Of a stretch of DNA of 64,000 bases, positions 2,187 through 21,716 are shown piece after piece; position 1 is the stretch's first letter, and each line of letters opens with the position of its first letter. The translations under genes were made by a program, and so were the position numbers. The DNA is from a virus: IMG/VR virus record IMGVR_UViG_3300033067_000713, positions 1-64,000 of that record. One strand, written 5' to 3'. Under the pieces are notes generated by a model, which searched no databases, had not been told where the DNA came from, and saw only the letters and a list, made by a program, of their open reading frames with translations.

Positions 2187-2258
2187 TAGGTATAAGTTTG
2201 TATAGAGGAACAGCACACTGATAAAGTGCAGGTGTTGGTGCAAGTCCAACATACCTAA
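2187..2258 (+). tRNA. atypical tRNA, anticodon GAT (Ile) by best fold
   Basis: Perfect 7-bp acceptor TAGGTAT/ATACCTA. D stem GTTT/GAAC. Anticodon stem GCAC(A)/(A)GTGC with loop CTGATAA. T stem GTTGG/CCAAC with a non-canonical T loop TGCAAGT. Discriminator A. There is one mismatch in the anticodon stem and the T loop is unusual, so confidence is moderate. Confidence 0.4.
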
Positions 2259-2598
2259 CAAATTACAATTATTCCTAGATATAGGTGAGCAATAATCATT
2301 CAAAGAGAAAATGCATGAAAGTGATTATATCATGTACAGATATGTAAAAAGCTACTCTAATAATTGTAATCTCTAAATCCTAAAGTAACTTTTGTGATAT
2401 TAGGTAGTTTTCTTTGTTATCTTATAAACAAAGTGGTGGACATGTAAACCAGTGGTTATGTGGCTCATAAGTAGTAGGTTTGAAAGTAAAACTTGAGATA
2501 TAACAGGTTACTTCCTACTACTTATTTAAATGAAATATTATCAACATAATATATAAATACTACGTTTGGTTTGTGTGTAGTGTGTAGTGTGGTTAGTT

Positions 2599-2632
2599 AA
2601 AGAGAGGATTAATTTCCTCTCTTTTTCTTTTT
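2599..2632 (+). terminator. rho-independent terminator after the tRNA region
   Basis: Stem AGAGAGGA (2601-2608), loop TTAATT, stem TCCTCTCT (2615-2622), followed by TTTTCTTTTT. Confidence 0.6.
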
Positions 2633-2662
2633 AATTAATTAATAATAAAATAAATAAAATTT

Positions 2663-2884
2663 ATGAGTACTTTTTTAATAGCAATAACTATTTGGTTATT
2701 AGTTAGTTTAACAAACATTATTATCTTCAGGAAACAAATATTTTTAAAAGAATTAACATTAGTAAACAAAATAACTGGTATCTTTGTAATCTTGGTTTTA
2801 GGACCAATTTTTATACCTATATTTTTATTAATTATTAAATCAATACAAAATATACACTTTGAAGATGAAGAACATCTAAAGTAA
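2663..2884 (+). CDS. small membrane protein (two predicted transmembrane helices)
   Basis: ORF of 73 aa with two long hydrophobic stretches (IAITIWLLVSL and GIFVILVLGPIFIPIFLLII). It starts just after a terminator. Confidence 0.35.
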   Translation: MSTFLIAITIWLLVSLTNIIIFRKQIFLKELTLVNKITGIFVILVLGPIFIPIFLLIIKSIQNIHFEDEEHLK

Positions 2885-3031
2885 TTTAACTTTGATACAG
2901 AATTATAGTTTTTAAATAAAAATTAAACCTATTGTGGCGGTGGGAATCCGCCCTTTAGATGTTTATTAAAATATGAATGATTAATAGATTATATATAATT
3001 GTATTCCCAGATACAATAAAAACAAAACAAA

Positions 3032-3376
3032 ATGAAGTTTAAAGTAGGTGATTTAATTACTGGAACAGATAAAGCTTTAAGTAATTTTCAAGATATTGAT
3101 TTATCTGATCAAGCTGTTTTAGAAGTAACAGAAGTTGATGATGATGAATATTATTGTATAATTATTTCTAACCAAATTGATGATTCTAATGTAGGAGAAA
3201 CTGTTACGTTTTATGACTCTGATGAAAGATTCTTTGTTCATATAACACCAGAAGTATCTACTAAATATCATGTAGATTTAGGTACTTTTTCAGTAAATGA
3301 ATTTAAAAAACATCAAGAAAATACTAGTTCAGGATTATCTAGAGCTAAACTCTTAAAGGCTAAGGGTTTATTATAA
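3032..3376 (+). CDS. hypothetical protein
   Basis: Acidic ORF of 114 aa. Confidence 0.5.
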   Translation: MKFKVGDLITGTDKALSNFQDIDLSDQAVLEVTEVDDDEYYCIIISNQIDDSNVGETVTFYDSDERFFVHITPEVSTKYHVDLGTFSVNEFKKHQENTSSGLSRAKLLKAKGLL

Positions 3377-3412
3377 AATAATCTAAATTTTTAACAAAAC
3401 AAAATACAAAAA

Positions 3413-3691
3413 ATGGCAACATTATTAGAATTAGCAACAGCAGAATTAGGTAAAACACCAGAACAAAAAGCATTAGCTGCTTTATCAGAAAAAGTAGAAG
3501 ATAATAAAGTAGCATTTATTACTGATTTACATCATGCAAAGAAAGCAGTTAGTGCTGCTGAAAAAGTAGTCAATTATTTAGCTTCAAATCCAAGTGCATC
3601 TGCACGTCAAATTATTGATGCTGATGATGATTTTGCTGTAGCTAAAAAAGAAGTAGAGCAGATTAATGCTATTATGGCATCAAGATTCTAA
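3413..3691 (+). CDS. hypothetical small acidic, Ala-rich all-helical protein
   Basis: ORF of 92 aa. Its Ala/Glu/Lys-rich composition is atypical for this genome. Confidence 0.5.
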   Translation: MATLLELATAELGKTPEQKALAALSEKVEDNKVAFITDLHHAKKAVSAAEKVVNYLASNPSASARQIIDADDDFAVAKKEVEQINAIMASRF

Positions 3692-3740
3692 TTATTTAAA
3701 TATATAAATGGCGGAGTTAATAGCTCCGCCTATTTCTATT

Positions 3741-3980
3741 ATGAAAGAAAGAATTAAACAACTTATTATATCTAGATTAAATAGTACAGGATTAAATATT
3801 ATAGATTATCTTATAATTTATATATATTATAAAACAATGAAAGATGTTAAAATTACTTTAACACCAAATGATTTTCATAAACATTTAGATTTTTTAACTT
3901 ATAATGAACAATATGTAAAACAAGAATTTGAAATAAATTTATTATCTGATAAATATGGTCAACCTATATTATATTTATAA
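3741..3980 (+). CDS. hypothetical protein (the track ORF starts at 3708; the start is more likely the ATG at 3741)
   Basis: The 3708 ATG lies inside a GC-rich hairpin (GGCGGAG-TTAATAG-CTCCGCC, 3710-3730) that looks like the terminator of the upstream gene. The next in-frame ATG at 3741 is followed by MKERIKQL. Confidence 0.45.
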   Translation: MKERIKQLIISRLNSTGLNIIDYLIIYIYYKTMKDVKITLTPNDFHKHLDFLTYNEQYVKQEFEINLLSDKYGQPILYL

Positions 3981-4008
3981 TGATTTATTTTTTTTAACTT
4001 TCTTTTAA

Positions 4009-5919
4009 ATGATATACACAATAGGATGTCCTAGATTAATTACTACACAACAGTTTACAGAAGTAACAGTTGCATATTGTTTAGATTATTTTAAAAATCA
4101 TAAAAGTGTTCAATTAGATACTGAAACAAAAGGTAAAGATCCACATACTAAAAAGATATTAAGTTTACAACTAGGAGATTCTGATAATCAATTTGTAATT
4201 GATGTTAGAAGAATAAACATATTATTATTTAAAGAATTAATAGAAAGTAAAATAATTATAGGTCATAATTTAAAGTTTGATTATAAATTTTTAAAGAAAG
4301 CTGGTATAGTATTAAACAACTGTTGGGATACAATGCTTGCAGAATGTGTATTATATTGTGGTTATGAAAAATATGGATATGGCTTAGCTGCTGTAGCTCA
4401 AAGATATTTAAATATTACATTAGATAAATCTGTTAGAGGAGAATTTTTTAAATTAATAGATGAGCCTTTTAATGATGACCAAATATTATATGCTTCTAAA
4501 GATGTTAAATATTTAAATTTAATAGCTGAAAAACAATATCATAAGATTATAGAATTAGATTTATTATATTGTATTAATCTTGAAAATGAAGTATTAAAAG
4601 CTTTAGGAGATATAGAATATAATGGTATGATACTTAATAAAGAAAAATGGTTAGCTAATACTAATAAATTTAAAGAAGAGTTAGAAATAATAACTCAAAC
4701 TTTAGATAATATTGTAGAATCTGAACCTAAATTAAGTAAATATATTCCTAAATATATACAAAGTAATTTATTTGATTTTGAAGAAAGAAAATTAAAAATA
4801 AATTATTCTTCACCTTTACAAATTTATAAAATATGTAAAGATTTAGGATTTAATCCAGAATCTACTAATGATAGAGAATTAACTAAATTAGTTGATAAAC
4901 ATAAATTTTTTACTGTTTTACAAGATTATAGAGAAAAAGCTAAAATTATAAGTACTTATGGTGAAGGATTTTTAGAATATATTAATAAAACTACAGGAAA
5001 GGTTCATACATCTTTTTGGCAAGTATTAAATACAGGAAGAGTATCATCTGGTTCTAAAGATGATAATGCTCCTAATTTACAAAATATACCTGCTAAAAAT
5101 ATATTTAGAAATTGTTTTGAAGCTAGACCAAGATTTTTATGGGTTTCTATAGATTATAGTGGTCAAGAATTAAATTTAATGGCTGATGGTTCAGGAGAAG
5201 AAGGTTTTATAGATGTATTAAATAGAGGAGAAGATCTTCATTGTTATGCTGGTAGTATGATGTTTAAGAAAACTATTACTAAAGCTGATAAAGATTTAAG
5301 AAATAAAGCTAAAACTATTAATTTTGGTAAACCTTATGGAATGGGACCACCTAAATTAGCTGATACATTAAGTATTAGTATAGAAGAATCTGAACAATTA
5401 TTTAAAGAATATGCTGAAGCTTTTCCTAAATTAAATAAATGGTTGGAAAAACAAAGTAAATTTGCTAAAGAAAAAGGTTATTCAATGACTTTTGCTCCTT
5501 GTAAAAGAAAAAGATTTTATCCAGAAATAAATAAAGCTAAAGAATTAAGAGAAAAAGCTTCTAATTATATTAAAGGTTCTCCAGAATCTAAAGAATTATG
5601 GAAAGAAATATTTAAAATAGAAGGTCAAACTGAAAGAAATGGTGGTAATCAACCAATACAAGGTTCTGGTGCTGATATTACTAAAGAAGCTTTAGTAGAA
5701 GTTAGAAAACTTATTATAGAATATAATAAAGAATATAAAGAAGAAGTAGCATTTTTAATTTGTACTGTTCATGATGCTATTGATGTAGAAGTTAGAGAAG
5801 ATTTAGCTTTAGAATTTTCTAAGGAAATGGAACAAATAATGATAAATTGTGGTAATAAATATGTATCTAAAGTACAAATGAAAGTGGATACTACTATTAC
5901 TAAAGAGTGGATGAAATAG
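4009..5919 (+). CDS. DNA polymerase, family A (PolA-type) with 3'-5' proofreading exonuclease
   Basis: Exo I motif DTETKG and Exo III-like YASKD in the N-terminal part. Pol motif A DYSGQELNLMA, motif B RNKAKTINFGKPYGMG and motif C VHDAI. Confidence 0.85.
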   Translation: MIYTIGCPRLITTQQFTEVTVAYCLDYFKNHKSVQLDTETKGKDPHTKKILSLQLGDSDNQFVIDVRRINILLFKELIESKIIIGHNLKFDYKFLKKAGIVLNNCWDTMLAECVLYCGYEKYGYGLAAVAQRYLNITLDKSVRGEFFKLIDEPFNDDQILYASKDVKYLNLIAEKQYHKIIELDLLYCINLENEVLKALGDIEYNGMILNKEKWLANTNKFKEELEIITQTLDNIVESEPKLSKYIPKYIQSNLFDFEERKLKINYSSPLQIYKICKDLGFNPESTNDRELTKLVDKHKFFTVLQDYREKAKIISTYGEGFLEYINKTTGKVHTSFWQVLNTGRVSSGSKDDNAPNLQNIPAKNIFRNCFEARPRFLWVSIDYSGQELNLMADGSGEEGFIDVLNRGEDLHCYAGSMMFKKTITKADKDLRNKAKTINFGKPYGMGPPKLADTLSISIEESEQLFKEYAEAFPKLNKWLEKQSKFAKEKGYSMTFAPCKRKRFYPEINKAKELREKASNYIKGSPESKELWKEIFKIEGQTERNGGNQPIQGSGADITKEALVEVRKLIIEYNKEYKEEVAFLICTVHDAIDVEVREDLALEFSKEMEQIMINCGNKYVSKVQMKVDTTITKEWMK

Positions 5920-5935
5920 TTTAAAAATAATTATT

Positions 5936-6178
5936 ATGGAAAAAACAATTAAAAAAGTAGCACATATTTCAGATGAAAAATTATCTATAATGTTAAAATT
6001 TGTTACAGATAAACATCCTGAAGCTAAAAATAACTTTATGTTATTATCTTTAAAAATTCAAGAAAATTTTAATACATATTGTCCTTGTGGAAGAATAGAG
6101 GAATATATAGCTAAAATTTCTTTTATTGAAGATTTTGAATTAGAAGGAAGGAAAATAGAATATGGTCATAGAATGTAA
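5936..6178 (+). CDS. hypothetical protein
   Basis: ORF of 80 aa containing a C-x-C pair. Confidence 0.45.
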   Translation: MEKTIKKVAHISDEKLSIMLKFVTDKHPEAKNNFMLLSLKIQENFNTYCPCGRIEEYIAKISFIEDFELEGRKIEYGHRM

Positions 6179-6969: not shown

Positions 6970-7794
6970 ATGAAATTAAGGCAAACTTGGAATAAAAAAA
7001 TAGGTATTTATTGTATAAAAAATAGTATTACAAATAAAAATTATGTTGGAAGTTCTATAAATATACTTGGAAGATTATATAAACATAGAGCTTTATTAAG
7101 ACATAACAAACATCAAAATAGTTATTTACAAAATTCTTGGAATAAATATAGTGAAGAATATTTTACTTGTTTTATTTTAGAAATTTGTAATATTGATGAA
7201 TTAATTGTAAAAGAACAATTTTGGATTGATAAATTAGGAGATTATAATTTAACTAAAGAAGTTATAAGATTAAAGTTATCAGATGAATCTAAACAAAAAA
7301 TGTCTTTTACAAGAAAAAATAAAATTGCATCTGGTGAAATACCTAAGTATGGAAGTAAAAAAATTAAAAAATATTTAAAAAATGGTGAATTTATTAAAGA
7401 ATACAATTCTATAACTGATGCTAGTAATGATAGTAATATTTCTACTTGTCAAATAAGTAGAGTATTAAAAAAAAGACATATTACAGCAGGAGGTTATCAA
7501 TGGAAATATTCAACTGATAATTCAGAAATTAAAATTTATAATGGTAGAGATCATAAAAAAGAAGCTTTAAAACGTAGAAAAGCTTTATTAGTTTTAGATA
7601 CTTATACTGGTATTTATTATAATTTTAATTCTTATAAAGAAACAGAACAATTTTTTAATGTAAAATTTCAAACAATATCAAGAGCAATTAAAAATACTAG
7701 AAATTTATACAAAAATAGATATTTAATACAACCAGATCTTATAAAACAGGAAGAATTGCTGGAAACTCCTAAAGCTTTATTAACTACAACATAA
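6970..7794 (+). CDS. GIY-YIG homing endonuclease (Seg/I-TevI-like) with a C-terminal NUMOD/IENR-type DNA-binding region
   Basis: N-terminal GIYCIKN...YVGSS...R...H...N motif set. C-terminal region ...ISTCQISRVLKKRHITAGGYQWKYS. A TATCTTTG -7-like motif (6948-6955) precedes it. Confidence 0.85.
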   Translation: MKLRQTWNKKIGIYCIKNSITNKNYVGSSINILGRLYKHRALLRHNKHQNSYLQNSWNKYSEEYFTCFILEICNIDELIVKEQFWIDKLGDYNLTKEVIRLKLSDESKQKMSFTRKNKIASGEIPKYGSKKIKKYLKNGEFIKEYNSITDASNDSNISTCQISRVLKKRHITAGGYQWKYSTDNSEIKIYNGRDHKKEALKRRKALLVLDTYTGIYYNFNSYKETEQFFNVKFQTISRAIKNTRNLYKNRYLIQPDLIKQEELLETPKALLTTT

Positions 7795-12574: not shown

Positions 12575-13167
12575 TGTATAAAGTAATAGTACCTGAATGG
12601 GAATACTATTTTGTAAAATCTAAAAAAACAAGTCCTAAATATTGGCTATATAAAGATAAAGATAAATTACCATTAAAACATAAAGCTGTTTTTAGAGATC
12701 AGCCTTTATTAATTAGTGGTAAAGCTTATTGTTGTGATAATGGAGGAAATAGAATGGTGAAAAATACAAAGAAAGTAGGAGCAGAGAATATCTGGGTACT
12801 TAACGGAAATGCACTTTATTCTGGAATACTTCATCATACAATGAGAAAGAAAGTAGCAGGTTATTATCATAATTACTTTAGTAAGTATATTAGAGAACAA
12901 CTTAAACCTATAATATTAACACCAGGTAATTATTTAAGTATATCGTGTGATATATATGAAATACCTAGAGGTAATATGCCTGATGTTAGTAATATGTGGT
13001 TACTAGAAAAATTCTTTGAAGATGCTTTACAAGAATGTGGTATAATTGAAGATGATGGTCCTAATATTGTATTAGAAAGTGGAAGAAAACGTTATCATTG
13101 GGTTAAACATCCAAAAGAAAGAAAATTAATCTTTAACATAAATATAACAACACATGAAACTATTTAA
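12574..13167 (+). CDS. hypothetical protein
   Basis: ORF of 197 aa that overlaps the upstream stop (ATAATG). Confidence 0.5.
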   Translation: MYKVIVPEWEYYFVKSKKTSPKYWLYKDKDKLPLKHKAVFRDQPLLISGKAYCCDNGGNRMVKNTKKVGAENIWVLNGNALYSGILHHTMRKKVAGYYHNYFSKYIREQLKPIILTPGNYLSISCDIYEIPRGNMPDVSNMWLLEKFFEDALQECGIIEDDGPNIVLESGRKRYHWVKHPKERKLIFNINITTHETI

Positions 13168-13768
13168 TATAACTATTAATAAGACTATTAAATCTATATT
13201 AGAAATATGTAGTATGATTATTTTAATAATTTATGCTTACATAGGAGCTTATAAAATTCATTATGAACAAACAGAACCAAGAATAATAGAAATACATGAT
13301 ACAATTTACAAAACAAATATAGATCTGGGAAATCTATATAATTTGTCTATTAATCATTTAAAAAGTAAAGAAGGATTATGTCTTAAACCTACTATTTCTT
13401 GTGATGGATTATTGACTATAGGTTATGGTCATGTAATTAAAAAAGATGAAACATTTATAGGTATCTCTGAAATAGAAGCAACTCTTTTATTAAAGAAAGA
13501 TTTACAAAAAGCAATAGATTTTGTAAAAAATAATACTAATTTAAAAGATAATAAAGCTCTAGCAATGGGGCTTTTATCTTTTAATATTGGTACAGGAAGA
13601 TTTCTTCAATATATGAAGAATGATTCATTATTAGTAGGTAATAATATCAATAAAATTATTAATTATTGTCATTATACTACTAAAAAAGATGGAAAAGATA
13701 TTACCATTACTTCAAAAACTCTCAAGGAAAGAAGAATTTTTGAATTAAAAATATATCATAGTTTTTAA
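13154..13768 (+). CDS. endolysin, T4 lysozyme-like (GH24) with an N-terminal signal-anchor (SAR type)
   Basis: KSKEGLCLKPTISCDGLLTIGYGH aligns with T4 lysozyme [21 protein letters not shown] (catalytic Glu, Asp, Thr). The N-terminal hydrophobic segment is SMIILIIYAYIGAY. Confidence 0.7.
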   Translation: MKLFNITINKTIKSILEICSMIILIIYAYIGAYKIHYEQTEPRIIEIHDTIYKTNIDLGNLYNLSINHLKSKEGLCLKPTISCDGLLTIGYGHVIKKDETFIGISEIEATLLLKKDLQKAIDFVKNNTNLKDNKALAMGLLSFNIGTGRFLQYMKNDSLLVGNNINKIINYCHYTTKKDGKDITITSKTLKERRIFELKIYHSF

Positions 13769-13785
13769 CAATAAACAAACAACAA

Positions 13786-14019
13786 ATGAGAACAATTAAA
13801 GTTTTTTCAACAGAAACTAGTACATTAAAAGAATTACAATCAAGTGCAACTACTTGGGGAGAATTAAAAACAGAATTAAAAGCTGCTAATATTGATCCTA
13901 GTAATATGAAAGGTATGATTAAAGAAAGTAAAACTACTTTAGAACATGATGGTGGAGTATTACCAACTGAAGGATTTACTTTGTTTCTTACACCTCAAAA
14001 AGTAAAGTCAGGTTTCTGA
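13786..14019 (+). CDS. small protein, candidate ubiquitin-like (beta-grasp) protein
   Basis: Its 77 aa match the size of ubiquitin and show a similar hydrophobic periodicity (MRTIKVF...TLKEL...ELKTELKAANIDP...KESKTTLEHDGGVL...FTLFLTPQKVKSGF). It sits directly upstream of the JAB-E1 operon. There is no terminal GG; it ends in SGF. Confidence 0.3.
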   Translation: MRTIKVFSTETSTLKELQSSATTWGELKTELKAANIDPSNMKGMIKESKTTLEHDGGVLPTEGFTLFLTPQKVKSGF

Positions 14020-14061
14020 TTATCAACTAGTTACAAAATAATTAACTAAAAAATAAATATT

Positions 14062-14211
14062 ATGTCTGCTGAAATACAAAAAGAAGATTTGGAAAATAAT
14101 ACTGTTCTCCAAAAAGAAACAGAAATGGAAAAAGAAATAGATGATTTCTTTGATATTTATTTTAAAAATGAACAATTTCAAAAAAGTTGTTTACAAGAAT
14201 TGGAATTTTAA
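14062..14211 (+). CDS. small ORF of 49 aa (below the track threshold)
   Basis: ATG at 14062 with an A-rich leader, ending in TAA at 14209-14211, immediately followed by a terminator hairpin. Confidence 0.3.
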   Translation: MSAEIQKEDLENNTVLQKETEMEKEIDDFFDIYFKNEQFQKSCLQELEF

Positions 14212-14213
14212 CT

Positions 14214-14243
14214 AAAAGGCTAGTGTAATAACTAGCCTTTTTA
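14214..14243 (+). terminator. intrinsic terminator-like hairpin
   Basis: AAAGGCTAG (14215-14223), an 8-nt loop, CTAGCCTTT (14232-14240), followed by TTAATAATT. Confidence 0.5.
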
Positions 14244-14254
14244 ATAATTAAATT

Positions 14255-15886
14255 ATGGATGAACAAAATTTTGATTTTGATGCTTGGGATAGCATAATGC
14301 AAGCTATAGAGCAAGGTAAATCTTTAAATTCTTTAGATAATAATCCTACTATATCAACTATACCTAATATTGAAGATTTAAATACTATTAATAAAATAAA
14401 TACAGAAGATCCTAGAAGTAAAATAACTAATTTTGATTATTTAAAATCTTTAAACTTACAATCAGAAACTACTACAGGTAAAATTATATTTAATCATAAA
14501 TTATATGGAATTTCATTATCTGGATCACAATCTGGTTATCAACAAAGAAATGTTACTTATAATTTTATTTTAACTAGAATAGATTTAGATCAACCTGTAT
14601 TATATATGGTTATATATAGAGAACATGAATTGATGTTCAGAGATATAAAGATATATGGTAGTATTTTTTCAAATGATTTAAATAATATTACTATAAATTT
14701 ATCAAAGTTATTAGATTTTTCTGACTTATGTTTTGATAAAGAAGTTTATGAAAAAGAATTATTAAAATATGAAGAAATGAAAAATAAAAATAATGATTTA
14801 AATGTTGAAAAATATCTAATTAAATTAGATAAAAATAGACAAACTAAATATAAACAAGAATTAGAAGTTTATGAAATAAAATTAAAATTAGCTACTATTG
14901 ATGATATATTTACTAAATGTTGTACAACTGTATTTGATGATAATTGGGATTTTGTTAGAAATATAGAATCAGATAGATTTACACCTGATAGATTATATAG
15001 AAATAGATTAACTATTCATTTTCCAGAAATAGAAATTAAAAATAGTAAAAAACAAAGTCATAAAATATATGATTTTTATTTAAGTTTATTTTTTAATGAT
15101 AATTTTAAAATATATTCTAATATTTACGGAAGAAGACAAACTTATAGTTTAGAAGAATTTGATAGATCTTATAGTCATTCTCATTGTAGTCCTGATAGGT
15201 ATCATTGGTCTAAAATGTGTTTAGGAGATGATACACCATTATCAGAATTAGTATATAGTATGGCTAGTAGTAATAATAGTTTTAATGAAAATAATTTAAT
15301 GAAATTATTATTATTAATTCAAGGTTATATTGGTTGGGAATCATTAGAAGGTGGACCTCATGTGAGAATGGAAACTATAGGTAATGCTAGAGGAACTGTT
15401 AATCAGAATTGGAGTACAGATTCTATTAAAGATTGTTATAGTACAATTAAAAATAATTTAAATGTTATTAATAGAGATAAATTAATAACATTTAGTAATA
15501 TTAATAAATTTAATAAATTTATAATAAATTCTGAATTATTAGAATCTTCATTAGGTAATTTATCATATAATAGTTCTAATTATATTTGTTTTAAATCTGG
15601 TGATGAATATTATACTAATAATATAAATGCTATAGATTATGAAAATAATATAGCTAGATATAATAGAGATATTCAAAATAATATTAATAATAGTAGAAAA
15701 ATTGAATATAAAGGCAAATTAATAACGCCTGAAATTAAACAAAATGTAAGTAATAATGCTGAAACAATTAAATGTTTAAATCCACATTTATTTAAATCAG
15801 TAATAAATATGTTACAAAAAGATATAAATAATTATTATTTAAAAACAAAAAATTATGAGTTTAGTAGAATCAAAGAGAGTGCATAG
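14255..15886 (+). CDS. large hypothetical protein, first gene of the JAB-E1 operon; possible E2-like segment
   Basis: ORF of 543 aa. The segment SYSHSHCSPDRYHWSKMCLGDD loosely recalls the HPN...C-L-D region of UBC/E2-like folds. This is weak. Confidence 0.5.
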   Translation: MDEQNFDFDAWDSIMQAIEQGKSLNSLDNNPTISTIPNIEDLNTINKINTEDPRSKITNFDYLKSLNLQSETTTGKIIFNHKLYGISLSGSQSGYQQRNVTYNFILTRIDLDQPVLYMVIYREHELMFRDIKIYGSIFSNDLNNITINLSKLLDFSDLCFDKEVYEKELLKYEEMKNKNNDLNVEKYLIKLDKNRQTKYKQELEVYEIKLKLATIDDIFTKCCTTVFDDNWDFVRNIESDRFTPDRLYRNRLTIHFPEIEIKNSKKQSHKIYDFYLSLFFNDNFKIYSNIYGRRQTYSLEEFDRSYSHSHCSPDRYHWSKMCLGDDTPLSELVYSMASSNNSFNENNLMKLLLLIQGYIGWESLEGGPHVRMETIGNARGTVNQNWSTDSIKDCYSTIKNNLNVINRDKLITFSNINKFNKFIINSELLESSLGNLSYNSSNYICFKSGDEYYTNNINAIDYENNIARYNRDIQNNINNSRKIEYKGKLITPEIKQNVSNNAETIKCLNPHLFKSVINMLQKDINNYYLKTKNYEFSRIKESA

Positions 15887-17222
15887 CAGACAATTAGTTG
15901 AACTTAAAGAAAAAGGTAAACTAATTATACCTAATTCTGTTATTGAAAAAATACAATTTTTACATCATAAAATTAAAGCTATAGAATGGAGTGCTATTCT
16001 TCTTTATAAAGTTGTAGAAGGTGAGATAGAGAAACCAGGTACTTTAGTATTAAGAGTTGAAGATTTTATATTAATGGATATAGGTAATGCTACTTATACA
16101 GAATATGAATTTTCTACTGATGATGAGTATAGTTTTGAAAAATATACAACTGCTTTAGAAAATGGTTTAAAAATAGGGCATTTACATACTCATCATAATA
16201 TGAGATGTTTCTTTAGTGGAACAGATACAGATGAATTATTTGATAATTCTGAAAAACATAATTATTATTTATCTTTAATTGTTAATTTTCAAAATATCAA
16301 TGAATGGTGTGCTGCTGTAGCAATGTGTTTAGATGAGAAAATTGAAGGTGAAATTAAAGAAATAGGTAATATTAAAGTTACTAGAACTTATAAAGGAGCT
16401 GATGGTCTTCAAACAATTGAAACTAATCAAGAAGTAAATAATGTAAAACCTATTGTATCTGATAAATCTATGATGTATAAAATCAATTTAGATTTAATTA
16501 GAGAAGGTGGTGGAGAAAATTTAGATGGTTTAGAAGAAAGAATTAAAAGTATTGAAGAATCTAAAAAACCTAAACATAATTATAAAGATTATGGTTATGC
16601 TCATACTAGTAGATCTTGGGATTGGGAAGATTTAAAGACTGGTCATGGAGGGACTAGTATAAAAAGTACATTTCAAGAAATTAACAAAGAAGCAGAAAAA
16701 ACAGCAAAAACACAAGATGAATTTGAAGAAATGGAAAAGAAGTTAAATTTAGCTGAAACTAAAGATAAAGGAAAAGGTAAAAAAGAACGTATTATTAGAG
16801 CTAAGAATTGTTATTCTCCAGGTAATGTAAGAGAAGCTTTAATATTTCTTATTGATGGTAATGAAAATATGACTCTTCAAACAGCTTTAATTAATTTTTC
16901 TACTAGTTTATCTAATGTACACATGAGAGATTATCAACTTGGTATGTTAGAAGAAAGATTTGCTTTAAAATGTGATAATATTTTAAATATTAACGGTGAA
17001 GATTTAGATTATCATTGTTTAGCAGTTAGTTTTACTGATTTATTACAGCCTTTTAAAGATAGTCCTAATTTAGGCGAAGTAACTAAATTATTGTTAGATG
17101 TTTTTGATATTTATATCTTACCAGAAAAAGATGTAAGTAATGCTTTAACTAAACATTTTACAGGTTTAGAATTTGAAAGTGATGATGATCAATTAGAAAT
17201 AAATTTTTTAAAAAATTATTAA
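15855..17222 (+). CDS. JAB/MPN+ (JAMM) metalloisopeptidase domain protein
   Basis: A perfect JAMM motif: upstream Glu (EWSAILLY) followed by H-T-H-HNMRCFF-S-GT-D, i.e. HxHx7Sx2D. This is followed by a C-terminal extension of about 280 aa. It overlaps the upstream gene by 32 nt. Confidence 0.7.
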   Translation: MSLVESKRVHSRQLVELKEKGKLIIPNSVIEKIQFLHHKIKAIEWSAILLYKVVEGEIEKPGTLVLRVEDFILMDIGNATYTEYEFSTDDEYSFEKYTTALENGLKIGHLHTHHNMRCFFSGTDTDELFDNSEKHNYYLSLIVNFQNINEWCAAVAMCLDEKIEGEIKEIGNIKVTRTYKGADGLQTIETNQEVNNVKPIVSDKSMMYKINLDLIREGGGENLDGLEERIKSIEESKKPKHNYKDYGYAHTSRSWDWEDLKTGHGGTSIKSTFQEINKEAEKTAKTQDEFEEMEKKLNLAETKDKGKGKKERIIRAKNCYSPGNVREALIFLIDGNENMTLQTALINFSTSLSNVHMRDYQLGMLEERFALKCDNILNINGEDLDYHCLAVSFTDLLQPFKDSPNLGEVTKLLLDVFDIYILPEKDVSNALTKHFTGLEFESDDDQLEINFLKNY

Positions 17223-17223
17223 T

Positions 17224-17949
17224 ATGAATGAACCAGAAATAAATATAAATAATAAACATGCTAGGTTTCAAGATGCTCAATGGTATGATGGTAAACCACT
17301 TGATATAATTGTAGGTGGAGCAGGTGGTATTGGATCATGGGCTAGTATGTTTCTTAGCAGAATAGGTCATACTTTATATATATTTGATAATGATATGATT
17401 GATGAAACCAATATGGCTGGTCAATTATATAGAGTTAATCAAATAGGTGTAAATAAAGCTGAAGCTACTAAACAAAATATAGAATTATTTACAGATAATA
17501 AAAATACTGAAGTATTTGGATTATACGATGATAATTCTCCTACTTCACCAATAGTATTTTCATGTTTTGATAATATGAAAGCTAGAAAACTTATGTTTCA
17601 AAAGTGGAAAGCTCAAGAAAATAGAGATGTTTTTATTGATGGTAGAATGCTTGCAGAAATAGGTATGGTATTTTGTGTTACTAAAGGTAAAGAAGCTGAG
17701 TATGAAGCAGAATTATTTGATGATTCTGAAGTAAGAGAAGCACCATGTTCTTTTAAAGCTACATCTCATTGTGGAGCATTAATAGGATCATTAATGGTAT
17801 CAGGATTGAATAATTTCATAGTAAATAAAAAATTAGGTGATGATTTTAGAGAATTGCCTTTTAAATTTACTTTTGAATTACCATTATTTAACTTTGAAAT
17901 ACCTATAATTAAATTAGAAGAACAATTAAAAATAAAAGAAAATGTTTAA
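17224..17949 (+). CDS. E1-like ubiquitin-activating enzyme (ThiF/MoeB family), minimal 241 aa
   Basis: Rossmann motif IVGGAGGIGS followed by IFDNDMIDETNMAGQLY, matching the ThiF/E1 pattern GxGGxGS...DxDxV[DE]xSNLxRQ. It starts 2 nt after the JAB gene stop. Confidence 0.75.
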   Translation: MNEPEININNKHARFQDAQWYDGKPLDIIVGGAGGIGSWASMFLSRIGHTLYIFDNDMIDETNMAGQLYRVNQIGVNKAEATKQNIELFTDNKNTEVFGLYDDNSPTSPIVFSCFDNMKARKLMFQKWKAQENRDVFIDGRMLAEIGMVFCVTKGKEAEYEAELFDDSEVREAPCSFKATSHCGALIGSLMVSGLNNFIVNKKLGDDFRELPFKFTFELPLFNFEIPIIKLEEQLKIKENV

Positions 17950-18784
17950 TTTTAATATAAGTAATAGATATAGTAAACATCCTGATTTTCAATTAAATAA
18001 TGATTATATTATAAAATTAAAAGAAAATACAGAATATGTTCCTTTATTTTTTATTAATAAAAATAGTTTTCATCAGAGTACCACACTTGCTTTTAAAGAG
18101 TTAGATAAAATTAATAGATATATTGATCCTATGACTTATATTCCAAATAAAATATATCAAAATAGAATTAATTATTTAATTAATACTAATAATGGTGGAT
18201 TAAATACTAGTAATCAAATATTAATTGATTCTAAAAATTATATTAAAAATTATTTAAAATATAATATACCAGAATTTAACAATCATATTGTTAATAATAT
18301 TATTACTTATGAAAATTTATTTGATATTTGTATTAATACTTCTGTTTTAAATAAAACTAATTTAAGAAGTAATACTTTTATAAATCATTTTGGATTTTTA
18401 GCTTTAAATACTAATACTTTTAAACCATTGTTTCAAGCAATGATTAAAAAAGAACATTTAAAGTATTTTAAATTATGTTATCTTACAAATACTCAACCTG
18501 ATTATTCTTTAGTAGAATTTTGGATAGATAATGAATTTTTAAATAATGATGATTACAAGAGTATTAAAATGGCTTTTAATAAAACATTAAAACCTAAATT
18601 AGATTCTAGAATTAAAATTGTTAAAGTTAATAATCTATTAGATTATAGTTTTGATTATATTAAAACACCTGTTTTTGCTACAATTAGTGATAAAAAACAA
18701 TTTGAAAATAGTGTTTTAAATGATTTTGTTCAGGATACTATATTAGAAAATCAATTAAATAGTAGAGTTTTAATAGAAGCTTAA
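17942..18784 (+). CDS. hypothetical protein (last gene of the tightly coupled JAB-E1 cluster)
   Basis: ORF of 280 aa that overlaps the E1 gene stop by 8 nt. It is rich in Asn and Ile and has no recognisable motifs. Confidence 0.5.
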   Translation: MFNFNISNRYSKHPDFQLNNDYIIKLKENTEYVPLFFINKNSFHQSTTLAFKELDKINRYIDPMTYIPNKIYQNRINYLINTNNGGLNTSNQILIDSKNYIKNYLKYNIPEFNNHIVNNIITYENLFDICINTSVLNKTNLRSNTFINHFGFLALNTNTFKPLFQAMIKKEHLKYFKLCYLTNTQPDYSLVEFWIDNEFLNNDDYKSIKMAFNKTLKPKLDSRIKIVKVNNLLDYSFDYIKTPVFATISDKKQFENSVLNDFVQDTILENQLNSRVLIEA

Positions 18785-21170: not shown

Positions 21171-21716
21171 ATGGATTCTAAAATATTAATACAATTTTGT
21201 AAAAAATTTGATATAAAATCTAATAAAACAGAATATCCACCAAATATAAAAATATTTAAAAATTTTGATAATAATTTATTAAAAGCTTTAATGGTAGGTT
21301 TTATAGATGGTGATGGACATATTTCTACTTTACATAATAGAAAAGATTTTAAAATATCTATAAAATGTCATAAAAGTTGGTTAGATTTTCTTAATTTATT
21401 ATCTAAATGTTTTAATACTGATAATACTGCTTATATTACTAATCAAGGATATTCTTTTATCTCTATAGGTAACTCTATTAAATGTAAAGAAATTAAAAGA
21501 TTTGTTTTAGATAATAATCTTCCAGTATTATTAAGAAAATGGAATTTTATAGATTTAAATTTTAAAGGAAGAAATGAAATTGCTATAGAAAAAGAAATTT
21601 TAGTAAGACAATTATATGAAAATAATTTTTCTCAAAAAGAAATATGTTCAAAAGTAAATTTAACAAAAGGTAGAATTAGTATAATGATAAAAAAATTAAA
21701 TAATGAAACAAAATAA
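21171..21716 (+). CDS. LAGLIDADG homing endonuclease (second motif intact)
   Basis: Motif LKALMVGFIDGDGHIS near the N-terminus of the 181-aa ORF. Confidence 0.7.
   Translation: MDSKILIQFCKKFDIKSNKTEYPPNIKIFKNFDNNLLKALMVGFIDGDGHISTLHNRKDFKISIKCHKSWLDFLNLLSKCFNTDNTAYITNQGYSFISIGNSIKCKEIKRFVLDNNLPVLLRKWNFIDLNFKGRNEIAIEKEILVRQLYENNFSQKEICSKVNLTKGRISIMIKKLNNETK

Follow-up and report, generated by a model that had tools for sequence, protein, structure and literature searches.

A 64,000-nt stretch of viral DNA (IMG/VR record IMGVR_UViG_3300033067_000713, positions 1 to 64,000; the whole stretch is called the window here) carries a run of five plus-strand genes between positions 13786 and 18784. 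The first four encode a predicted ubiquitin-like protein (Ubl), a candidate ubiquitin-conjugating (E2) enzyme of 543 amino acids (aa), a JAMM metalloprotease and a minimal ubiquitin-activating (E1)-like enzyme. These four genes, referred to as the cassette, occur in the same order in all related loci that we compared, and they may specify a Ubl conjugation pathway that belongs to the phage itself. The genes, and the residues on which this interpretation turns, are as follows.

13786-14019, plus strand: Ubl gene; 77 aa, putative pro-Ubl with a predicted β-grasp domain, K74-S75-G76 and then a single capping residue, F77
14011-14016, plus strand: predicted processing site Gly76/Phe77, an invariant Gly between the conserved domain and the variable tail
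14255-15886, plus strand: gene for the 543-aa E2-like protein; variable N-terminal region (residues 1-215), core like the ubiquitin-conjugating (UBC) fold at about residues 228-360, C-terminal domain
15176-15220, plus strand: candidate E2 active-site loop, H308-S309-H310 ... C322, invariant or near-invariant in 39 homologues, with a variable spacer
15855-17222, plus strand: gene for the JAMM/MPN+ metalloprotease; 455 aa, with the catalytic domain at about residues 20-160, a linker and a helical C-terminal part
16185-16226, plus strand: JAMM zinc/catalytic motif, H111-x-H113-x7-S121-x2-D124, with its partner Glu44 at 15984-15986
17224-17949, plus strand: gene for the minimal E1-like adenylating enzyme; 241 aa, a single ThiF-type domain
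17746-17748, plus strand: Cys175 of the E1, the candidate thioester-forming residue, in the crossover-loop region; invariant in 22 homologues
17942-18784, plus strand: gene for a 280-aa protein, translationally coupled to the E1 gene

An original prediction, made from the nucleotide sequence without database searches, had described these five open reading frames (ORFs) as a tightly packed ubiquitin-like conjugation toolkit. All five ORFs exist on the plus strand at the coordinates it gave, and the packing is as described: the 543-aa and 455-aa genes overlap by 32 nt, 1 nt separates the 455-aa gene from the 241-aa gene, and the 241-aa and 280-aa genes overlap by 8 nt. The 280-aa gene in turn overlaps the next gene, which encodes a 5'-3' exonuclease, by 1 nt.

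The 77-aa protein matches PHROG 15560 (E 1.5e-11). Its homologues are 73-289 aa long; in all of them the first 76 residues or so form a common domain with K-x-K-(S/A)-G as its last residues, K74 and G76 being invariant in an alignment of 42 sequences. None of the homologues terminates at this Gly. It is followed by one to six residues in 15 of 63 database homologues and by about 20-73 in the others, and tails of up to 206 aa (about 210) were present among the loci fetched for comparison, most homologues being fusions to acidic, helical tails of 20-210 aa. Since an invariant Gly lies at the junction with a variable, dispensable tail, the reading of the 77-aa protein as a Ubl precursor that needs C-terminal trimming is strongly supported, and cleavage is predicted at Gly76; C-terminal processing had been guessed at in the original prediction. 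An AlphaFold2 (AF2) model built on the 42-sequence alignment (mean per-residue confidence, pLDDT, 79.5) showed a ββαββ arrangement with a low-confidence tail at residues 74-77, which is consistent with a flexible C-terminus. When the model was compared to the PDB with Foldseek, the best matches (template-modelling (TM) score 0.65-0.73, probability 1.00, E about 2e-3) included ubiquitin, ubiquitin variants, ISG15, SUMO, Caldiarchaeum ubiquitin and other β-grasp domains. The top 50 were all ubiquitin, Ubl, RBD or FERM-F1 β-grasp domains (TM 0.55-0.76), and ThiS and MoaD were absent from them. A search of the PDB with the family profile did not reach any solved Ubl by sequence. The 77-aa protein is predicted from its model to have a β-grasp fold resembling ubiquitin, in agreement with the ubiquitin-like size and hydrophobic pattern first noticed. 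Many of the long Ubl tails (L001, L006, L007, L010, L017, L023 and P0032-P0069) also have a hydrophobic-Gly motif close to the end of the tail itself (...LLGGR, ...ALGLG, ...SLGL, ...DLGV, ...ALFGK, ...KMFG, ...FLGK), which is reminiscent of a second Ubl-like terminus and is not invariant.

The 241-aa protein scored above the curated cut-off of the Pfam ThiF family (PF00899; 67.3 bits, cut-off 28.1, E 1.5e-18) and matched PHROG 15670 (E 1.4e-49). By these matches it appears to be a bona fide adenylating domain of the ThiF/E1 superfamily, as had been claimed. Its nearest solved relatives were PaaA (E 1.7e-6), UBA5 and MccB (6e-5), the match covering the Rossmann segment only (residues 26-99). 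In 22 homologues, including one from a jumbo phage, the invariant residues were G32, G34 and S38 of the nucleotide loop, D57, N63, K78, D116, R121, D139, R141 and C175; R14 and N117, the latter within the motif D116-N117...R121, were invariant or near-invariant. The protein has four Cys residues, of which C175 alone is invariant. This residue follows the last Rossmann strand, in an enzyme with no separate Cys domain. We take C175 to lie at the position of ThiF Cys184 and MoeB Cys187, which is presumably also where larger E1s insert their catalytic-Cys domain. The E1 sequence contained neither CxxC zinc pairs nor a rhodanese domain.

Although the top NCBIfam matches of the E1 were ThiF, MoeB, MoeZ and the UbaA that activates small archaeal modifier proteins (SAMPs), its assignment as ThiF or MoeB proper was rejected: the equivalog scores were several-fold too low (54 against a cut-off of 159 for ThiF, 27 against 449 for MoeB), and there were no cofactor-biosynthesis genes among the neighbours scanned. 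For the same two reasons, the label "thiamine biosynthesis protein" that such genes bear in GenBank is unsupported. A PRTRC assignment was likewise rejected, with PRTRC_ThiF at 37.7 bits against a cut-off of 144.75 and no NCBIfam match for the other four proteins. In two of the loci compared (L023, 6410-7379, and L024, 8001-8970) the E1 match extends over 970 nt, where about 690 is usual, and its ORF is limited to the last 177 aa. Roughly 460 nt seem to have been inserted into the E1 gene there, perhaps as an intron, intein or homing element.

The 455-aa protein contains an intact HxHx7Sx2D motif, as originally described, and its E44, H111, H113, S121 and D124 (E...HxHx7Sx2D) were invariant in 23 homologues. 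The protein scored 15.9 bits with Pfam Prok-JAB, below the cut-off of 25 (E 0.012), and E 5e-4 with the JAB model of PADLOC. When the family profile was compared to the PDB, it retrieved JAMM deubiquitinases only (E 1.7e-3 to 0.05), namely CSN5 (1.7e-3), Rpn11, the Caldiarchaeum Rpn11-like enzyme, archaeal JAMM1 and AMSH, all aligned through the catalytic motif. The C-terminal 280 residues consist of a low-complexity linker and a weakly conserved helical region. In the Flavobacterium phages Fpv1, FPSV-D24 and FPSV-D7, the JAMM query matched two separate places, the best of which covers about 48% of the query, and some members of the FpV4 group may have a split or duplicated JAMM gene.

For the 543-aa protein, no match was found in Pfam, PHROGs, NCBIfam or PADLOC. 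In an alignment of 39 family members the N-terminal third proved variable and the core conserved, the latter reading FPEIxIxN ... Y-x-HSH-(8-25 variable residues)-FCxG ... WESLEGGPY, with H310, C322, E362, S363, G366 and P368 invariant. The AF2 model of this protein rests on 18 sequences, the homologue searches having returned few proteins (15); its pLDDT was 68 overall and 84-93 for residues 210-360. In the model the core runs through a long helix, four β-strands, a short helix, HSH, a short strand with Cys322 and two helices, so that the order of the modelled elements is that of the UBC fold. HSH...C322 lies between the last strand of the sheet and the next helix, which we take to be the site of the HPN-Cys motif in E2s. 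The Bub E2 was a top structural match of the protein. Among the top 60 matches in a library of 48,164 chains, at least 30 were proteins of the UBC/RWD type, including AKTIP, VPS37A, UBE2J2, UBE2S, UBE2K, UBE2T, UBE2W, UBE2F, UBE2O, UFC1, BRE and many RWD domains. Sequence comparisons gave a different picture: none of the 39 members matched the E2 families in Pfam (UQ_con, Prok-E2 and similar) at E <=1, the family profile had no significant link to an E2 in the PDB, and hhalign against human UbcH5B gave a probability of 1.3%, with TIHFPE aligned to TIHFPT. The modelled core likely belongs to the UBC fold class and a catalytic role for Cys322 is plausible, and with moderate confidence we regard the 543-aa protein as E2-like. 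Of the faint E2 likeness first noticed around its Cys/His segment, the invariant HSH...C322 loop and a UBC-like core have been added in support, while sequence profiles and Foldseek were negative and the E2 assignment stays provisional.

The linkage of these genes was assessed in 26 IMG/VR loci fetched with the E1 as bait, together with Flavobacterium phage FpV4, a rodent-gut crAss-like phage, ΦcrAss001 (NC_049977, locus L029) and a 47%-identical relative (L031). BLAST and family hidden Markov models (HMMs) showed that the order Ubl, E2-like protein, JAMM, E1 was kept in 28 of 28 fetched loci, FpV4 among them. ΦcrAss001 and L031 had the same four-gene order, giving 30 of 30 related loci overall, and in nearly all loci the cassette lay downstream of the primase gene. 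The JAMM domain matched 74 of 50,697 phage records in a tblastn search, and the taxon breakdown of these records equals that of the 79 records matching the E1 minus five jumbo Xanthomonas/Erwinia phages. Because the same order was found in all 30 loci and the JAMM and E1 records coincide, the recurrence of the four-gene set is far beyond chance, and the co-occurrence in other phages envisaged at the outset is real. At the nucleotide level, the cassette DNA matched none of the 50,697 records.

In ΦcrAss001 the cassette corresponds to gp79-gp78-gp77-gp76 (L029, 2319-6729). The Ubl is gp79, which reads ...EKKIKSG/AMSR at the predicted junction and has a 135-aa tail; gp78 is the E2-like protein, and gp77, annotated "metalloprotease domain", is the JAMM protein. 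The E1 is gp76, annotated ThiF, with 383 aa including an N-terminal extension of 145 aa. Under the labels that cassette genes carry in GenBank ("thiamine biosynthesis protein", "metalloprotease domain containing protein", "hypothetical"), the ΦcrAss001 set is not known to have been recognised as one system before.

A DNA-pattern scan of a collection of genomes from 185,579 species found the cassette only on contigs of metagenome-assembled genomes (MAGs). These contigs (L042, L032-L037, L052 and L055) had been binned as Bacilli, Clostridium, Thermotogaceae, Tissierellales, Spirochaetia and Flavobacteriales. Since most of them keep the synteny with primase, they are probably mis-binned phage DNA. 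On L042 the cassette lies within a 639,747-bp contig of a Bacilli MAG, which could represent an integrated element or a chimeric assembly.

The jumbo Xanthomonas/Erwinia phages (about 228 kb) have a different arrangement. Xanthomonas phage PhiXhv-15 (L030) encodes an E1 of the cassette family at 4932-5615 (HMM E 2e-33). Just 5' of it, at 2241-4919, lies the gene for an 892-aa Cys-rich protein that contains "IHPHMAVPSSQESHGSLCLGSF", which resembles the HSH...CxG motif, and upstream of that, at 1736-2161, a gene for a 141-aa protein with the C-terminus ...KASGG. No JAMM was detected in this locus, and hhalign found no significant relation of the 892-aa and 141-aa proteins to the E2-like and Ubl families. 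From its sequence, the locus may hold a related set of Ubl, E2 and E1, with a Ubl that would not have to be trimmed.

The 280-aa protein had been counted as a member of the set, and in this respect the original prediction did not hold. Iterated HMM searches placed its family downstream of the E1 in only about 13 of the 28 loci, and the family comprised 63 representative clusters among 1.84 billion proteins. Neither a Pfam nor a PDB link was found, the family has no invariant polar residue, and hhalign showed no relation between the 280-aa protein and ΦcrAss001 gp75. Judged by this distribution, the protein appears to be a lineage-specific accessory outside the conserved core.

The cassette lies in the plus-strand half of the window, in which the replication genes are found. 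This half encodes a family-A DNA polymerase, a GIY-YIG endonuclease, DnaB, an AAA_24 ATPase, primase, a RusA-like resolvase, a lysozyme-family protein, the cassette, the 5'-3' exonuclease, a class II ribonucleotide reductase and an RNA ligase, and the DNA-metabolism setting first proposed for the cassette is thus evident. The E1 has its closest relatives among crAss-like phages that infect Bacteroides and among the FpV4-group phages of Flavobacterium psychrophilum, and by its closest relatives the phage carrying the cassette is crAss-like. The position in the replication module, and conservation along a phage lineage and not in defence islands, suggest that the phage uses the cassette during infection, on host or phage proteins.

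With the computed β-grasp fold of the Ubl, the JAMM motif, the E1 domain, the invariant Gly, Cys and His residues and the strict linkage of the genes in hand, we consider it reasonably probable that the cassette encodes a pathway for conjugating a ubiquitin-like protein. The pathway would begin with the 77-aa β-grasp precursor, capped by Phe77 (in relatives by a tail of up to about 210 residues), which the JAMM metalloprotease would cut after the invariant Gly76. The minimal E1, presumably a homodimer like ThiF and MoeB, would then adenylate the exposed Gly carboxylate with ATP and probably hold the Ubl as a thioester on Cys175, from which it would be handed to Cys322 of the 543-aa E2-like protein. 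The target would be chosen by variable domains on either side in this protein, the Ubl would be joined to an amine of the target, and the JAMM enzyme may also undo the modification. Cutting at Gly76, the passage of the Ubl from one thioester to the next, a function of the 543-aa protein as an E2 and the conjugation to protein as such are what we infer here.

Several observations weigh against this pathway. Neither a target nor an E3 was found for the cassette. The canonical Arg of the NxxRQ motif is absent from the E1, most members of the family having N-x-x-G-Q, and the best NCBIfam matches of the E1, though far below the cut-offs, are activators of sulfur carriers of the ThiF/MoeB type. The Ubl ends in Ser/Ala-Gly and not in Gly-Gly, and its Foldseek E-value lies above 1e-3. 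For the E2 in particular, a Foldseek search of the PDB with the 543-aa model returned noise only.

The rival explanation that survives best, although we judge it unlikely, is a Ubl system that operates without an E2, of the archaeal SAMP/UbaA/JAMM1 or Thermus TtuB/TtuC type, or a pure sulfur carrier. The JAMM enzyme would again expose the Gly and a MoeB-like E1 would adenylate it, but the Ubl would be thiocarboxylated as a sulfur donor, for example for modification of phage nucleotides or tRNA, or else be conjugated by the E1 directly, with the 543-aa protein as an acceptor or adaptor and not an E2. The E1 is single-domain, of the size of ThiF and MoeB, and its top NCBIfam matches come from this very group, but the scores lie 3-20 times under the equivalog cut-offs and the protein has no rhodanese domain or CxxC zinc pairs. 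The location among genes of nucleic-acid metabolism would suit a sulfur donor, whereas ThiG, MoaE, PP-loop and desulfurase proteins, the partners expected for sulfur transfer, were all absent from the 20 window proteins scanned. Sulfur-carrier trios of JAMM, Ubl and E1 are known in bacteria (Iyer et al. 2006, PMC1779556), yet the 50 best structural matches of the Ubl were of the ubiquitin type, with no ThiS or MoaD. Finally, the evidence for an E2 is moderate, but the protein in question is strictly linked to the other three and has a UBC-like core with an invariant Cys. A sulfur-carrier context, which the original prediction had named as an outcome that would count against it, was in sum not what the low ThiF/MoeB scores and the proteins scanned pointed to.

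We regard as improbable a module that only cleaves, like lambda gpK/gpI. In such a module the C-terminal tail would be the functional part, the Ubl fused to it would serve as a chaperone or timer that can be removed, and the JAMM enzyme would free the tail when it is needed, with no conjugation. Phage pairs of JAB and Ubl that act in cleavage are known (Iyer et al. 2006, PMC1779556; a conference report on lambda gpK/gpI, PMC12908700) and most homologues of the Ubl are fusions to a tail, but where the tail has one to six residues, as here and in at least 14 database homologues, there is nothing to release. A conserved acidic ORF of 49 aa, described below, follows the Ubl gene in the window and would suit this reading; however, the cassette lies in the replication module and not in a tail module, and the linked E1, with its adenylation residues intact, and the E2-like protein would be left unexplained. 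Very improbable is modification of a peptide or metabolite of the MccB/PaaA type, in which the E1-like enzyme would adenylate a peptide C-terminus to give a nucleotide-peptide or a cyclised product: PaaA and MccB are the best solved relatives of the E1, but they match only its generic Rossmann segment, where UBA5 scores equally, the 241-aa protein lacks the N-terminal peptide-clamp domain of MccB, and the candidate substrate is a folded 76-aa β-grasp protein ending in Gly and not a short peptide.

The cassette would work like known Ubl systems and is a member of none of them, being phage-borne, with an E2-like family of its own and a single-domain E1. It shares with Bil (bacterial ISG15-like; BilABCD) separate genes for Ubl, JAB, E1 and, by prediction, E2, with no E3 (PMC11601596). 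However, the Bil E1 has tandem adenylation domains and a Cys domain (PMC11601596), whereas the cassette E1 is one domain of 241 aa; Bil is a bacterial anti-phage defence operon, whereas the cassette is part of the replication module of a lytic phage; and the cassette Ubl differs in ending in S/A-G plus a tail. Neither the Ubl nor the E2-like protein matched any PADLOC model at the sequence level. Membership in Bil was rejected, as the E1 does not have the IAD-AAD-CYS architecture and the locus is not a bacterial defence operon.

Bub has a minimal E1 of the homodimer type and a JAMM peptidase that releases the active Ubl from a fusion, as is proposed for the cassette. The Bub components are themselves fused, as Ubl-E2 and JAB-E1 (type I) or E2-E1 (type II), and are accompanied by a DUF6527 serine protease; the Bub intermediates are oxyesters (Ser), and the E1 has no catalytic Cys (PMC11601596). 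The genes of the cassette are separate, Pfam gave no DUF6527 match, and the E1 and the E2-like protein both have an invariant Cys; membership in Bub (6E/DUF6527) was rejected on these grounds. The Cap2/Cap3 proteins of the cyclic-oligonucleotide-based anti-phage signalling system (CBASS) share the chemistry proposed here for E1, E2 and JAB, and the PADLOC E1-E2 models (Cap2-type) gave weak local matches to the nucleotide-binding segment of the E1 (E 4e-7, about 65 residues). Unlike the cassette, Cap2 combines E2 and E1 in one fusion and, with no separate Ubl, has the CD-NTase itself as the protein that is conjugated, and CBASS membership was rejected because neither a CD-NTase nor an effector occurs in the cassette or among the neighbours scanned.

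The SAMP/UbaA/HvJAMM1 and ThiS/MoaD-ThiF/MoeB(-JAB) systems resemble the cassette in their small β-grasp protein with a C-terminal Gly, single-domain E1 and JAMM protease, by which the Ubl is exposed or removed (Iyer et al. 2006, PMC1779556). In contrast to the cassette, these archaeal and bacterial sulfur-carrier systems lack an E2 and use carriers with a Gly-Gly terminus. Their E1s often have rhodanese or zinc motifs and lie beside genes for cofactor synthesis, tRNA thiolation or sulfur assimilation, none of which were seen at the cassette. The gpI/TAPI proteins of lambda and T1, with their JAB-NlpC partners gpK/TAPK, are the likeness among phages: a Ubl with a conserved C-terminal Gly, a C-terminal fusion and a JAB partner (PMC1779556, PMC12908700), for which cleavage at the Ubl Gly has been predicted or shown. 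The lambda system has no E1 or E2 and belongs to the tail module with a role in assembly, whereas the cassette has a linked E1 and E2-like protein and lies in a replication or early-middle module.

The gap of 235 nt that follows the Ubl gene contains two further features.

14062-14211, plus strand: acidic 49-aa ORF, MSAEIQKEDLENNTVLQKETEMEKEIDDFFDIYFKNEQFQKSCLQELEF, between the Ubl and E2-like genes, read from the sequence
14214-14241, plus strand: 11-bp hairpin followed by a U-rich run; ΔG -15.3 kcal/mol, z -4.45, 0/200 shuffles as stable

In L031 a called gene of 48 aa occupies the same position, with 62% identity to the 49-aa ORF. The ORF could be a detached counterpart of the tails that are fused to the Ubl elsewhere; a two-sequence search gave no significant homology to the fused tails (HMM E 0.04). 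The hairpin lies directly 5' of the E2-like gene and is conserved in L031 (about 5958-5986). It could be a terminator- or attenuator-like element that sets the ratio of Ubl to enzyme expression, and from this arrangement the Ubl would be transcribed in excess and the enzyme genes by read-through.

The window has a G+C content of about 25%. The lysozyme-family gene (13154-13768; Pfam Phage_lysozyme, E 1e-11), whose product has a hydrophobic N-terminal segment, lies directly 5' of the Ubl gene, an odd site for a lysis gene within a replication module, and it is placed likewise in L031. Two probable homing endonucleases were noted in the replication module: a GIY-YIG/NUMOD protein identified with Pfam (6970-7794), whose gene separates those of the polymerase and DnaB, and a 181-aa ORF (21171-21716) with a LAGLIDADG-like "GFIDGDGHI" motif recognised by eye only. 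On the minus strand, positions 32184-59388 hold giant ORFs of 1027, 1674, 3247, 899, 735 and 1415 aa. Such ORFs are typical for the virion and RNA-polymerase-like proteins of crAss-like phages.

Considered as a whole, the original prediction is largely supported: each of its components found support, with the E2 provisional, and none of the observations named beforehand as speaking against it was made, be it a sulfur-carrier context, a 77-aa protein without a β-grasp fold or an unconserved JAB motif. Among 8 million full texts, in which the subscription literature is partly covered and a prior mention is possible, we found no description of the cassette in crAss-like or Flavobacterium phages; the nearest prior mention was in a 2026 virome preprint, in which one gut-phage protein family structurally resembles UBA5. 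The lineage concerned comprises the crAss-like phages of Bacteroidota, including ΦcrAss001, and the Flavobacterium Fipvunaviruses. To our knowledge, prokaryotic Ubl conjugation has been understood as an anti-phage weapon (Bil, Bub, CBASS Cap2/Cap3) or as sulfur-carrier chemistry, and the phage Ubl/JAB pairs that we know of so far only cleave. We see about an even chance that the cassette is a complete cascade owned by the virus in a lytic lineage, which is used offensively, tagging host or phage proteins during replication, and mirrors Bil, Bub and CBASS, possibly as their source or as a countermeasure to them. The most abundant group of human-gut phages has a cultured representative in this lineage, ΦcrAss001, and since both ΦcrAss001 and FpV4 grow in the laboratory, the system is directly testable. 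An invariant Lys lies two residues before the terminal Gly of the Ubl, and a Ser-Gly remnant is therefore predicted on modified lysines after trypsin digestion. If the interpretation is true, four "hypothetical" or mis-annotated core genes of crAss-like phages would gain functions, a new E2-like family and a very small E1 would be defined, and bacterial viruses, too, would run a protein-tagging pathway of their own, vertically conserved in a lytic lineage.

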